In this document: piece by piece, positions 2,045 to 13,872 of the stretch
How positions within the stretch are numbered: position 1 is the first letter of the stretch
Layout of the letters: the number at the start of each line of letters is the position of its first letter
IMG/VR virus record: IMGVR_UViG_2874915312_000001
Strand: one strand, 5' to 3'
From: a virus
Lineage: Duplodnaviria > Heunggongvirae > Uroviricota > Caudoviricetes
Length of the DNA: 13,872 nucleotides
Translations under genes and position numbers: made by a program
The notes under the pieces: model-generated
What the model was told of the DNA's origin: nothing
Databases searched by the model: none
What the model saw: only the letters and a program-made list of their open reading frames with translations

Positions 2045-2386
2045 CTCTGAACTTGCGTTTCTGCTTACAGCGTAGCCTTAGCTCCTTACGAAGACGTGCC
2101 AGTCGGTCACGACCAACGATGATGCCATTCTCTGCCAGCTCCGTCTGGAGCCGCCGGGTTCCATATGTTTCGCGAGTGCGGATATGTGCCACCTTAATCT
2201 CCAGTTTTAGCCGCTCATCACTTTGTTTTCTGTCTGAGGGTTCATGCTGTACCCAGTTGTAATAACCGCTCCTGGATACACCAAATACCAGACACATCGC
2301 TTCAATGGGAAATTGTTGTCGCCATTGTTCGATTAACGCGTATTTTTCAGCGACTCCTGTGCAAAATACGCTGTTGCTTTTTTTAA
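2045..2386 (-). pseudogene. IS600-like OrfB, 5' fragment only
   Basis: ORF 1971..2297 (-) reads ...SRSGYYNWVQHEPSDRKQSDERLKLEIKVAHIRTRETYGTRRLQ..., an IS3-family OrfB N-terminal region. The A7 slippery run near 2378-2386 marks the likely frameshift site. The ORF runs into the IS911 repeat at 2044. Confidence 0.55.
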
Positions 2387-2635
2387 TATATCTCGCTCAA
2401 GGCGAGCTTCATTTAACGCCTTACGCAGTTGCAGAATTTCAGATTCCAGTTCAGCCACCGTGCGGGAACCAGGAGTACCGAGCCCTTTTCTGGCGGCGGT
2501 AACCCATTGTCCTAAAGTGCCTTCAGGAAGGGATAATCGGGAAGCGCCTTCACTGATCGAAAGTTGATTTTCAAGAACCGTTCTGACAGCTTCGGCTTTG
2601 AACTCTTTAGAGTAACGTTGGGTTTTTCTGCTCAT
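2333..2635 (-). CDS. IS600-like OrfA
   Basis: 100-aa ORF MSRKTQRYSKEFKAEAVRTVLENQLSISEGASRLSLPEGTLGQW... with an HTH and a C-terminal leucine zipper typical of IS3-family OrfA. Confidence 0.85.
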   Translation of the reverse strand: MSRKTQRYSKEFKAEAVRTVLENQLSISEGASRLSLPEGTLGQWVTAARKGLGTPGSRTVAELESEILQLRKALNEARLERDILKKATAYFAQESLKNTR

Positions 2636-2699
2636 TATTAGCTCCTTCTGATGCCATTCTATTTCAGGAAGGAGTGTCCGTTAAACTCAGGCTACCTCA

Positions 2700-2707
2700 G
2701 GTTGAAT
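2700..2707. repeat. 8-bp target site duplication GGTTGAAT (left copy) of the IS66-family element
   Basis: GGTTGAAT immediately precedes the left terminal repeat (2708) and recurs immediately after the right terminal repeat at 5462-5469. Confidence 0.6.
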
Positions 2708-2789
2708 GTAAGCGCCCCATCAGCGACGTCTTGTGAAAATTGTCCTGTCTGGCAACAATCGCGCCCATCTATATTGATGGACACGAACG

Positions 2790-3464
2790 ATGAATTCCCA
2801 GACAACAAAAGATATTCCCTGCTTCCGTTCTTATTTGCCTGATGCCCTGCGTTTAAGATTTGAAGATAAACTGACCATCCGGGCCATCGCTCAGCGTCTG
2901 GGTCTCAGTCATTCCACAATACATACGCTTTTTCAGCGATTTCTTGCATCCGGTATCGCATGGCCATTGCCCGATTCAGTTTCATTCGCTCAACTTGACG
3001 CCATCCTTTATGCCAACAGAAAGAAGGAATTAACAGAGCCTCAAATCAGAGAAGGCTCATGGCGAAAAGAACGGCGAACCAACTATAGCCGTGAATTTAA
3101 GGTCCGTCTGGCTAAGCAGGCATTACAGCCTGGGGCTGTTGTTGCCCGGATCGCCAGAGAACACGATATCAATGATAACCTGCTGTTTAAATGGAAAAGC
3201 CAGTACGAGGACGGCTTACTGAGCGATGATGACATACAGGAATGCATGCCTGTCCCGGTGGCACTGACTGATACGCCGGAGCCGACCAGACCAGTTACAA
3301 ATCCCTTCTGGCGTAACAAGCATGATGAGCGCCCTGAGGGGGCTCCCGGAAACGTCCCACGGTGCGAGCTGCATCTTAAATCAGGTGTGGTAAAACTGTT
3401 TGACCCTCTCACTCCGGAACTGTTACGGGCGCTAATCCGCGAAATGAAAGGGGGTATCCGATGA
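2790..3464 (+). CDS. IS66-family accessory protein (TnpA-like, HTH)
   Basis: 224-aa ORF; its central region ...NYSREFKVRLAKQALQPGAVVARIAREHDINDNLLFKWKSQYEDG... is a transposase-type HTH. First ORF of the IS66 unit. Confidence 0.7.
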   Translation: MNSQTTKDIPCFRSYLPDALRLRFEDKLTIRAIAQRLGLSHSTIHTLFQRFLASGIAWPLPDSVSFAQLDAILYANRKKELTEPQIREGSWRKERRTNYSREFKVRLAKQALQPGAVVARIAREHDINDNLLFKWKSQYEDGLLSDDDIQECMPVPVALTDTPEPTRPVTNPFWRNKHDERPEGAPGNVPRCELHLKSGVVKLFDPLTPELLRALIREMKGGIR

Positions 3465-3808
3465 TAACGCTGCCGACCGGTACCAAAATCTGGATCATCG
3501 CTGGCATCACAGATATGCGTTGTGGCTTCAATGGCCTGGCTTCGAAGGTGCAGAACATGCTGAAAGATGACCCGTTCTCCGGGCATATCTTCGTCTTCCG
3601 GGGCCGCAGTGGCAAAATGGTGAAAATACTGTGGGCCGATCGTGACGGGTTATGCCTGTTCGCCAAACGCCTGGAACGGGGCCGCTTCGTCTGGCCGGTG
3701 ACCCGGGAAGGGAAAGTGCACCTGACGCCAGCTCAGTTATCCATGCTACTGGAGGGGATCGCGTGGCAACATCCCAAACGGACAGAACGGCCTGGCATCC
3801 GGATATAA
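3461..3808 (+). CDS. IS66-family TnpB
   Basis: 115-aa ORF MITLPTGTKIWIIAGITDMRCGFNGLASKVQNMLKDDPFSGHIFVFRGRSGKMVKILWADRDGLCLFAKRLERGRFVWP..., the conserved IS66 Orf2. Its start overlaps the stop of the preceding ORF. Confidence 0.8.
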   Translation: MITLPTGTKIWIIAGITDMRCGFNGLASKVQNMLKDDPFSGHIFVFRGRSGKMVKILWADRDGLCLFAKRLERGRFVWPVTREGKVHLTPAQLSMLLEGIAWQHPKRTERPGIRI

Positions 3809-3827
3809 CCCGTGATAAAACAAGGGA

Positions 3828-12584: not shown

Positions 12585-12882
12585 ACGTAACCCACCAATC
12601 ATGACACACGATGAAATGGCAGCTAAATGGATGGATGACCCGGCTTTTAAAGCAGAATACGACGCCATCGCCGACGAGTTCGCACTGCTTGATGAAATGC
12701 TGGCCGCACGCAAAGAAGCTGGTCTCACCCAGGCTGAAGTTGCTGAACGCATGGGTACCAAAGCAACCGCCATCACCAGAATGGAAAGCAATCTTGCCTC
12801 AGGTGTCAGCGGACCATCATTTGCCACACTGAAAAAATTTGCACGCGCAACAGGGAAAAAACTCCAGATCCGCTTCGTGTAA
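12574..12882 (+). CDS. XRE-family HTH antitoxin (HigA-like)
   Basis: 102-aa ORF with HTH LTQAEVAERMGTKATAITRME. Strong AAGGAGG ribosome-binding site; its start overlaps the toxin stop by 11 nt, the classic toxin-then-antitoxin HigBA order. Confidence 0.7.
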   Translation: MTGKRNPPIMTHDEMAAKWMDDPAFKAEYDAIADEFALLDEMLAARKEAGLTQAEVAERMGTKATAITRMESNLASGVSGPSFATLKKFARATGKKLQIRFV

Positions 12883-12894
12883 ATTTCCATTATC

Positions 12895-12915
12895 GCGCCG
12901 TTATTATGGCGGCGC
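12895..12915. terminator. GC-rich hairpin between the convergent cassette and minus-strand genes
   Basis: GCGCCG ... CGGCGC inverted repeat 13 nt after the antitoxin stop. No U-tract on either strand, so any terminator function is uncertain. Confidence 0.25.
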
Positions 12916-13077
12916 TTCGCACTCAACAAAATCACGCCTGAACAACCACAACGGGCTGAAACATTCATATGGATAACCATCACGCAGATAAATAACCCGC
13001 TGTGTTTCAGGCTCCCAGCATATAACGTGAACACGACGCCCCCTTCCGTCACGGAACCAGCGATTGAGGACTTGCAT
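12904..13077 (-). CDS. small hypothetical protein (57 aa), not in the supplied ORF track
   Basis: ATG at 13077; MQVLNRWFRDGRGRRVHVICWEPETQRVIYLRDGYPYECFSPLWLFRRDFVECEAPP. It follows gene 13097..13492 after 17 nt. Weak ribosome-binding site; coding status unproven. Confidence 0.3.
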   Translation of the reverse strand: MQVLNRWFRDGRGRRVHVICWEPETQRVIYLRDGYPYECFSPLWLFRRDFVECEAPP

Positions 13078-13096
13078 AAATTACCCGTAAACATCG

Positions 13097-13492
13097 TCAC
13101 CCCTGCCAGCCCAGCGCCTGGAACAACCCCATTTTCGGGTGATACCAACGAGTTCCTCTCGGTTCCGCTTCGCTCATCATACGATGGAAAGCAGCCATAA
13201 ACGGTTCCACTGCAACAATTGCGCGGCGTGACAACAATCCGTCCGGAGTAAGAAATTCGTGAGTATCAGTTGGAATTTGATAGATGTTCACCAGATTGCG
13301 GCATTTCGCATCTGACATACCCGTTTCCGCCACCAGCTGACGGTAGCCTGCATAACCATCGCGGATGGTGCCTCTTTTGATTTGTTCGACAGTTTCAGTA
13401 ACGTGACTGACTTTTTCTTCCATCTTGTCGAGGCGTTTTTGCTGACGAACGGCTTCAAGAGCCATCGCGGCAACCATTTCGATTTCGCTCAT
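13097..13492 (-). CDS. hypothetical phage protein, possibly the C-terminal part of an antirepressor/Rha-type gene whose 5' end was cut by IS600
   Basis: ORF MSEIEMVAAMALEAVRQQKRLDKMEEKVSHVTETVEQIKRGTIRDGYAGYRQLVAETGMSDAKCRNLVNIYQIP... The first ATG is 14 bp from the IS600 terminus (13506) with no ribosome-binding site, and the frame is open into the IS. Family assignment is a guess. Confidence 0.4.
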   Translation of the reverse strand: MSEIEMVAAMALEAVRQQKRLDKMEEKVSHVTETVEQIKRGTIRDGYAGYRQLVAETGMSDAKCRNLVNIYQIPTDTHEFLTPDGLLSRRAIVAVEPFMAAFHRMMSEAEPRGTRWYHPKMGLFQALGWQG

Positions 13493-13505
13493 TGGTTTGC
13501 GCACC

Positions 13506-13872
13506 TGAGGTAGCCTGAGTTTAACGGACACTCCTTCCTGAAATAGAATGGCATCAGAAGGAGCTAATAATGAGCAGAAAAACCCAACGTTACTCTAAAG
13601 AGTTCAAAGCCGAAGCTGTCAGAACGGTTCTTGAAAATCAACTTTCGATCAGTGAAGGCGCTTCCCGATTATCCCTTCCTGAAGGCACTTTAGGACAATG
13701 GGTTACCGCCGCCAGAAAAGGGCTCGGTACTCCTGGTTCCCGCACGGTGGCTGAACTGGAATCTGAAATTCTGCAACTGCGTAAGGCGTTAAATGAAGCT
13801 CGCCTTGAGCGAGATATATTAAAAAAAGCAACAGCGTATTTTGCACAGGAGTCGCTGAAAAATACGCGTTAA
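13506..13872 (+). mobile_element. IS600-like (IS3 family), second copy, left end; continues beyond the window
   Basis: The terminus TGAGGTAGCCTGAGTTTAACGGACACTCC at 13506 and the following OrfA are identical to the inverted copy at 2333..2699. Confidence 0.8.
13570..13872 (+). CDS. IS600-like OrfA
   Basis: 100-aa ORF identical to 2333..2635 (-); A7 slippery run at ~13819-13826. Confidence 0.85.
   Translation: MSRKTQRYSKEFKAEAVRTVLENQLSISEGASRLSLPEGTLGQWVTAARKGLGTPGSRTVAELESEILQLRKALNEARLERDILKKATAYFAQESLKNTR

Follow-up and report, generated by a model that had tools for sequence, protein, structure and literature searches.

Shigella flexneri genomes carry inversions mediated by insertion sequences (ISs), one of them attributed to IS600, and a nested inversion that was subsequently re-inverted has also been described (Nie et al., 2006; PMC1550401). 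Lambdoid prophages integrated at mlrA (also named yehV), such as the complete elements of Escherichia coli RMDEC364 and VL40, follow a canonical layout in which int, xis, and cI lie on the strand opposite to that of cro, Rha, the replication genes, Q, holin, and lysozyme, with int opposite O/P-Q-S-R. The same chromosomal site is used by the Stx1 prophages of O157:H7. The present analysis concerns a stretch of 13,872 nt assigned to Caudoviricetes (IMG/VR record IMGVR_UViG_2874915312_000001), referred to as a whole as the window, in which a block of phage DNA lies between two inverted IS600 copies. This block (5462-13505) is the Rha-to-holin segment (S2) of a decayed lambdoid prophage at mlrA in S. 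flexneri; it is flipped relative to int and mlrA, and its present arrangement required at least two recombination events plus a deletion.

The locus can be placed readily among the described systems. As in the cases of Nie et al. (2006), the inversion is bounded by IS copies and points to homologous recombination between dispersed copies; unlike those cases, it is small, involving about 8 kb of phage DNA and a neighbouring segment, lies within a prophage remnant at mlrA, and has junctions that were further eroded by IS911-associated truncation and ISSfl3 insertion. With the canonical mlrA prophages of RMDEC364 and VL40 the window shares the integrase, the attachment site, the gene order, and 97-100% DNA identity, whereas of a complete prophage it retains only the last 61 codons of int and, in flipped orientation, about 8 kb from the early-right region, in which, unlike in those relatives, Q and the helicase gene are inactivated. 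All of the parts (IS600, IS911, ISSfl3, and a lambdoid prophage at mlrA/yehV) are already known, and the rearrangement is a further example of a documented Shigella event, with no new mechanism or function; a description of this particular mlrA-locus rearrangement was not found in the literature.

The finished S. flexneri chromosome CP026803.1 matches the window at 100% across all 13872 nt, and S. flexneri is likewise the source name on proteins from this lineage (K-227, K-272, and others). The features on which the argument turns are as follows.

1-588, minus strand: 5' two-thirds of mlrA (yehV), 98.5% identical to the annotated mlrA of enteroinvasive E. coli (EIEC) VL7S7
609-795, minus strand: 3' remnant of the integrase gene (last 61 codons and stop), abutting the start of mlrA
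796-2044, plus strand: complete IS911 of the IS3 family, with orfA at 868-1170 and orfB ending at 2036
2045-2699, minus strand: left IS600 fragment (nt 1-655 of 1264), with the left inverted repeat (IRL), OrfA at 2333-2635, and the start of OrfB
2700-2707: left copy of the ISSfl3 target duplication, GGTTGAAT, which also holds codons 11-12 of an open reading frame (ORF) of 209 amino acids (aa)
2708-5461, plus strand: ISSfl3 of the IS66 family, 2754 bp, with tnpA at 2790-3464, tnpB at 3461-3808, and tnpC at 3828-5429
5462-5499, minus strand: first 10 codons of the 209-aa ORF together with the right ISSfl3 duplication copy
13097-13505, minus strand: 3' part of a gene for a Rha-family regulator (C-terminal ~135 of 235 residues)
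13506-13872, plus strand: right IS600 (IRL and OrfA), cut by the window end

The int remnant aligns to the 428-aa mlrA-site integrase WP_000063647.1 (VL7S7, RMDEC364), RMDEC364 is 100% identical to window positions 555-795, and RMDEC364 and UGYT01000001.1 match the block in the same gene order at 98-100% identity; the integrase end adjoins the 5' end of mlrA and the gene order is collinear, as is expected of a lambdoid prophage at this site. The mlrA gene itself is a pseudogene here, in which 4 extra nt at 28-31, compared with E. coli, shift the reading frame, and in CP026803.1 it is called as two ORFs, both with MlrA Pfam domains.

Orientation is the first point at which the window departs from its relatives. 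The holin gene, four tRNAs, Q, ninH, the helicase and loader ATPase genes, and the Rha/ash genes all lie on the minus strand, which is the strand of the int remnant; this sharing of a strand with int (609-795) had been noted in the original prediction, a reading made from the DNA letters, and it is indeed seen here and opposed to the arrangement in canonical relatives. The comparison with mlrA-integrated relatives that the prediction proposed gave the canonical orientation in all five of these IS-free or canonical versions of the prophage: two from E. coli (RMDEC364, VL40) and three from Shigella assemblies (UGYT01000001.1, CP100042.1, AKMV01000007.1), the latter three being 99.5-99.7% identical to the window across 6614-13507. 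As the replication and lysis genes lie opposite int in these relatives and on the same strand as int in the window, the block is truly inverted. That there was no inversion, the prophage being natively one-stranded or the arrangement an assembly artefact, is highly improbable, given that five related mlrA prophages show the opposite relative orientation, that the window equals a finished genome, and that two independent draft contigs cross the right IS600 into the chromosomal gene yehI. The arrangement is present in that finished genome and both drafts, which are the three assemblies that cross the right IS600 and which show one orientation, and junctions at the block boundary occur in at least 17 further draft assemblies. 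The window's four junctions were found in 0 of 5426 complete E. coli genomes, which indicates that the rearrangement is specific to one S. flexneri lineage.

The block is bracketed by IS600 as had been proposed. The termini (TGAGG...) lie at 2699 and 13506 in inverted orientation, the OrfA frames (2333-2635, minus; 13570-13872, plus) are identical, and the two ends form a perfect inverted repeat of 370 nt (2333-2702 and 13503-13872), the length of which is bounded solely by the window end. In CP026803.1 the right IS600 is complete (1264 bp, with the expected TG...CA ends and the orfA and orfB frames), so the comparison can be extended over the whole left fragment, where 654 of 655 nt are the same and the one difference is at position 2290; moreover, window positions 13505-13872 are 100% identical to the RefSeq-annotated IS600 of VL40 and VL7S7. 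Native one-strandedness of mlrA prophages or clear divergence of the two IS600 copies had been named in advance as findings that would speak against an inversion between them; the relatives are canonical and the copies differ at 1 of 655 nt.

Three details of the proposed block nevertheless had to be revised, the first being that the left IS600 is a truncated fragment. What had been described as a 10.8-kb phage block is an inverted block, but its 10.8 kb include the 2754 bp of ISSfl3, and the phage DNA amounts to about 8.05 kb, nearly all of it with genes on the minus strand. ISSfl3 has the ends GTAAGCGCCCC...GGGGCGCTTAC, IS66-family Pfam domains, a RefSeq name, and an 8-bp duplication GGTTGAAT on both sides (the right copy at 5462-5469), which identifies it as a simple insertion. 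Likewise, truncated phage genes had been said to abut both IS600 ends: on the right this holds, as IS600 cuts off about 100 N-terminal codons of Rha and the final 3 nt of the remnant (ACC) touch the IS600 IRL, whereas on the left the gene is not R but the 209-aa hypothetical ORF, which in intact relatives sits between holin and lysozyme and of which 12 codons are left here. An intact Rha gene is found in VL40, with 97.9% identity to the remnant at 13097-13505. The GGT beside the left IS600 (2700-2702) is the reverse complement of the ACC beside the right one (13503-13505). The target of ISSfl3 was the 8 bp abutting the IS600 IRL, such that IS911, IS600, and ISSfl3 are stacked within 4.7 kb; the relative order in which IS600 and ISSfl3 inserted is not readable from the sequence.

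The simplest mechanism, a single crossover between the two IS600 copies, had been put forward as producing exactly the observed arrangement. An inverted IS pair does bracket the segment, and the segment is reversed relative to unrearranged relatives, both of which a one-step inversion calls for. Such a crossover also predicts, however, that the missing gene parts should flank the pair, with the 5' half of Rha beyond the left IS600 and the remainder of the 209-aa ORF beyond the right one, and neither is there: the left copy is followed outwards by IS911 and then the 3' end of int, and the right copy borders on the 3' part of chromosomal yehI. In the finished genome and the two drafts, the complete right IS600 leads into the 3'-terminal 780 bp of yehI and then into yehL, yehM, yehP, yehQ, and yehR, the plus-strand position of which makes them inverted relative to mlrA; in E. 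coli with mlrA oriented alike, the minus strand carries those yeh genes, which lie past btsS, btsR, and yehS. The right IS600 is flanked by ACC and GCA, without the 3-bp target duplication usual for this IS3-family element, which marks it as the product of recombination between IS600 copies in Rha and yehI. As the join of Rha 3' to yehI 3' is unreachable from the canonical order by one inversion, a count that we derived on the signed order of segments, at least two recombination events must have occurred. With GGT and ACC as mutually reverse-complementary inner flanks, the prediction for an exchange of duplications is identical in both models, and the left outer end is deleted. Of the mechanism originally proposed, the part that stands is that IS recombination flipped the block; that it did so in a single step does not.

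The outer boundary on the left carries its own sign of rearrangement. The left IS600 is truncated on its outer side by IS911, a copy 99% identical to RefSeq-annotated IS911 copies, the flanks of which (CAT, from int, and CTC, inside IS600) form no target-site duplication; IS911 accordingly sits on a rearrangement joint. The inversion, the junction sequences, the duplications missing from IS911 and from the right IS600, and the inverted yeh genes are observed directly, whereas we infer the order of events and the recombining IS pair.

The most economical history, to which we assign a probability of roughly 0.5, invokes recombination among three IS600 copies, located in Rha, the 209-aa ORF, and yehI, and a later deletion associated with IS911. 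In this scheme, RecA-type homologous recombination between IS copies would turn S2 around over several steps. IS600 would first have entered Rha, codon 12 of the 209-aa ORF, and chromosomal yehI independently; two crossovers among the three copies would then have inverted S2 and the adjacent segment, a stretch that takes in the remainder of the prophage as well as btsS and btsR and ends at yehI. These crossovers may have been two inversions in a row, or excision and subsequent re-integration, with the Rha by 209-aa-ORF crossover of the original prediction as the first of them. The intermediate would have read int ... Rha 5' / IS600 / flipped S2 / IS600 / flipped yehI 3'-to-yehR, and an IS911 in int would then have deleted everything from int 5' to Rha 5', plus 609 bp of the left IS600, before ISSfl3 landed beside the left IS600 end. 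The junction predicted at the yehI 5' part is GGTTATCTTTGATCAGCA/TGAGGTAGCCTGAG; in this scheme, the rest of the 209-aa ORF would be joined across IS600 to yehI 5' as GTACACCTCA/ACC/ACCTGGAAAATGAAATC. The reconstruction relies on the association of each IS end with its flank, which homologous recombination leaves intact; on this footing, the IS end orientations agree, by our own derivation, with crossovers between IS600 copies at these three sites (Rha, the 209-aa ORF, and yehI).

A different first step would account for the window equally well. If an IS911 in int and an inverted partner lodged inside the IS600 of the 209-aa ORF first flipped the whole int 5'-to-holin segment, and an IS600 in Rha then recombined with an IS600 in yehI in a second inversion to give the right junction, the order int 3' / IS911 / IS600(655-1) / 209-aa-ORF 5' would arise in one step with no deletion, and IS911 would lack a duplication since its two flanks come from two different loci. 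The left IS600 fragment would in that case be a passenger that never recombined with the right copy, and the int 5'-to-Rha 5' segment would be kept. Every end orientation agrees with this order of events as well (own derivation), and both schemes fit every orientation in the window. There is, furthermore, a precedent in EIEC: VL7S7 (NZ_CM177009.1; L001, L008) carries the same prophage with int and Q co-oriented and bounded by two inverted IS911 copies, and EIEC O121 201805972 (L002) has IS911 at those two places in the canonical orientation.

The two schemes diverge in the reciprocal products that they leave behind. The IS911-first order predicts a junction of Rha 5' / IS600 / yehI 5' (GTACACCTCA/ACCTGCTCTTCCAGTTCG), a join of IS600 from nt 653 onward to the IS911 IRL (GGGTTCGTAGTCGCTC/TGAAGTGGCACACTG), and a join of the IS911 right inverted repeat (IRR) to int 5' (GACCACTTCA/CATGCATAGGTATGCC). 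Among about 15 billion proteins, a collection that does hold this lineage's Rha 3' fragments from >20 assemblies, the int 5' fragment (ending at codon 367) matched in 0 of 11 predicted end variants (the int 5'-IS911 fusion and 10 truncated forms), and exact look-up of the Rha 5'-IS600 fusion matched in 0 of 4 start variants. An integrase homologue search showed no separate cluster of int 5' fragments, a search with the predicted Rha 5'-IS600 fusion returned only partial proteins that continue natively, and look-up of the IS911 OrfB led to thousands of unrelated places. A viral-contig collection, in which the lineage is represented by one isolate, contained no contig with this particular Rha 5' allele, none with the int codons adjacent to the breakpoint, and none of five predicted junctions; scans of genome and metagenome contigs covered collections that, by their positive controls, are without this lineage, so the nulls there are uninformative. 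That the int 5' and Rha 5' products were not found favours loss of the segment, for which the IS911-first order needs an extra deletion and becomes one event longer than the history with three IS600 copies.

A single base bears on the same choice. At the left IS600 site the native triplet, read in the orientation of the IS, is ATC in the relatives read (L029, L031, L007), and in the window it is ACC; the change makes the 3-nt flanks of both IS600 copies the same, as would be expected if a conversion tract extended as far as the homology does. At about 0.3% divergence a chance match of this base is unlikely, and the change, which the IS911-first order leaves unexplained, is suggestive of gene conversion between the IS600 copies. 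This argument and that from the missing reciprocal products are both indirect; together they make the IS911-first order unlikely in our estimation.

Several points weigh against the history with three IS600 copies and temper the probability that we give it. Its junction of the rest of the 209-aa ORF with IS600 and yehI 5' lies outside the sequences read; the outer end of the left IS600 is deleted, so its target duplication is uncheckable; the inner 3-nt flanks are mutually reverse complementary, which renders the exchange of duplications uninformative; a first inversion between IS911 copies accounts for the window in as many events, provided that the int 5'-to-Rha 5' segment was lost afterwards; and the missing predicted proteins are weak evidence, as annotation pipelines leave pseudogenes untranslated.

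More copies of IS600, or recombination between different resident lambdoid prophages, may also have taken part, in which case both simple schemes would be wrong. The prophage of sister genomes carries IS600 elsewhere, in the interval between a helix-turn-helix (HTH) gene and a 68-aa ORF and beside a truncated lysozyme gene, and isolates that have the Rha 3' / IS600 junction in common have different DNA past the tRNA genes or within the nin region. This variation on the far side of the block among isolates points to exchange with other resident lambdoid prophages. A history of this kind requires more events than the scheme with three IS600 copies, and the window itself does not demand them; we regard it as unlikely. 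As individual observations on these isolates, K-272 (L004 17488-18158) and L118 have VL40-like sequence after tRNA-Gly, and L119 has RusA and a different Q.

It is improbable, lastly, that the segment still flips at measurable frequency in S. flexneri cultures, via the 655 bp of inverted IS600 homology, or that the shared 3 nt are a carried-over IS3-family circle-junction spacer. If the triplet were a spacer instead of a product of gene conversion, it would be an unusual footprint of imprecise integration, with the two IS600 copies as donor and daughter.

Two further lines were pursued and set aside. Draft contigs that end in Rha, 6 nt from the IS600 site, were considered as carriers of the reciprocal product; the native sequence continues there, and the contigs belong to a different lineage, 98.5% identical in mlrA and with a different immunity region. 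Inverted-repeat-like motifs beside both IS911 ends were considered as a clue to mechanism, and the similarity was too weak. Seventeen E. coli draft contigs of another lineage (L009-L016) all end at ...GAGCAGGTGCGCAA in Rha, 6 nt past the IS600 site of the window, which hints at a repeat edge that recurs or at a further IS insertion in almost the same place.

The prophage of VL7S7 is among the closest known counterparts of the window. It is the same mlrA prophage, 99.7% identical over 6614-12217 and 100% identical over 5464-6624, with int co-oriented with Q and holin and one breakpoint 14 bp from the IS600 site in the same 209-aa ORF; unlike the window, it has an inverted segment of about 14 kb between two complete IS911 copies, this segment includes cI, cro, and the early-left genes, and the yeh genes are in their normal orientation. 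In O121 201805972 (L002), the IS911 at the identical 209-aa-ORF site is reversed relative to VL7S7, with the IRR rather than the IRL facing the ORF, a difference that homologous recombination alone cannot produce. In the same O121 sequence (L002 18583-18595), 13 nt just outside the IRL of IS911b repeat the tip of the IS911 IRL without mismatch (TGAAGTGGCACAC), which looks like the footprint of an insertion targeted to an inverted repeat or of an IS dimer.

With regard to its wider meaning, the locus is an example of IS expansion in Shigella eroding a prophage and reshuffling it with neighbouring chromosomal genes, the chromosomal effects being a frameshifted mlrA, a split yehI, and inversion of the genes from yehI to yehR. 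Its immediate use lies in annotation and in the interpretation of assemblies, since short-read contigs of this lineage break exactly at these junctions.

The remaining features of the block, from the holin gene towards the Rha remnant, are the following.

5499-5714, minus strand: class II holin, 100% identical to the WP_000839570.1 region, PF04971
6007-6317, minus strand: tRNA cluster of Gly(TCC), Thr(TGT), Arg(TCT), and a tRNA with a CAT anticodon
6517-6773, minus strand: antiterminator Q pseudogene, with a 114-nt deletion between 11-nt direct repeats ATATAACCATC
6766-6969, minus strand: ninH, by PF06322 and annotation in relatives
7315-8706, minus strand: DnaB-like replicative helicase pseudogene, with the nonsense mutation Q135* (stop at 8302-8304)
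8703-9590, minus strand: IstB/DnaC-like loader ATPase
9592-10506, minus strand: LvrA-C-like replication-initiation protein
10717-11577 and 11574-12389, minus strand: two Rha/ash-family genes
12255-12882, plus strand: pair of a HigB/Gp49-like toxin and an HTH antitoxin, PF05973 and PF01381

The prophage remnant is non-functional in several ways, among them the Q deletion, at the site of which the 11-nt repeat ATATAACCATC lies at 6614-6624, the stop codon in the helicase gene, and the mlrA frameshift. The tRNA with the CAT anticodon is annotated as Ile in RefSeq relatives, and a DUF4222 gene follows the HigB/HigA-like pair and precedes the Rha 3' part. The HigB/HTH pair sits between the ash and Rha genes on the opposite strand; it is absent in VL7S7 and O121, and other small modules take its place in VL40 and RMDEC364. 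A 79-nt direct repeat, 92% identical between 11483-11561 and 12139-12217, marks the 5' regions of the tandem ash/Rha-family paralogues.

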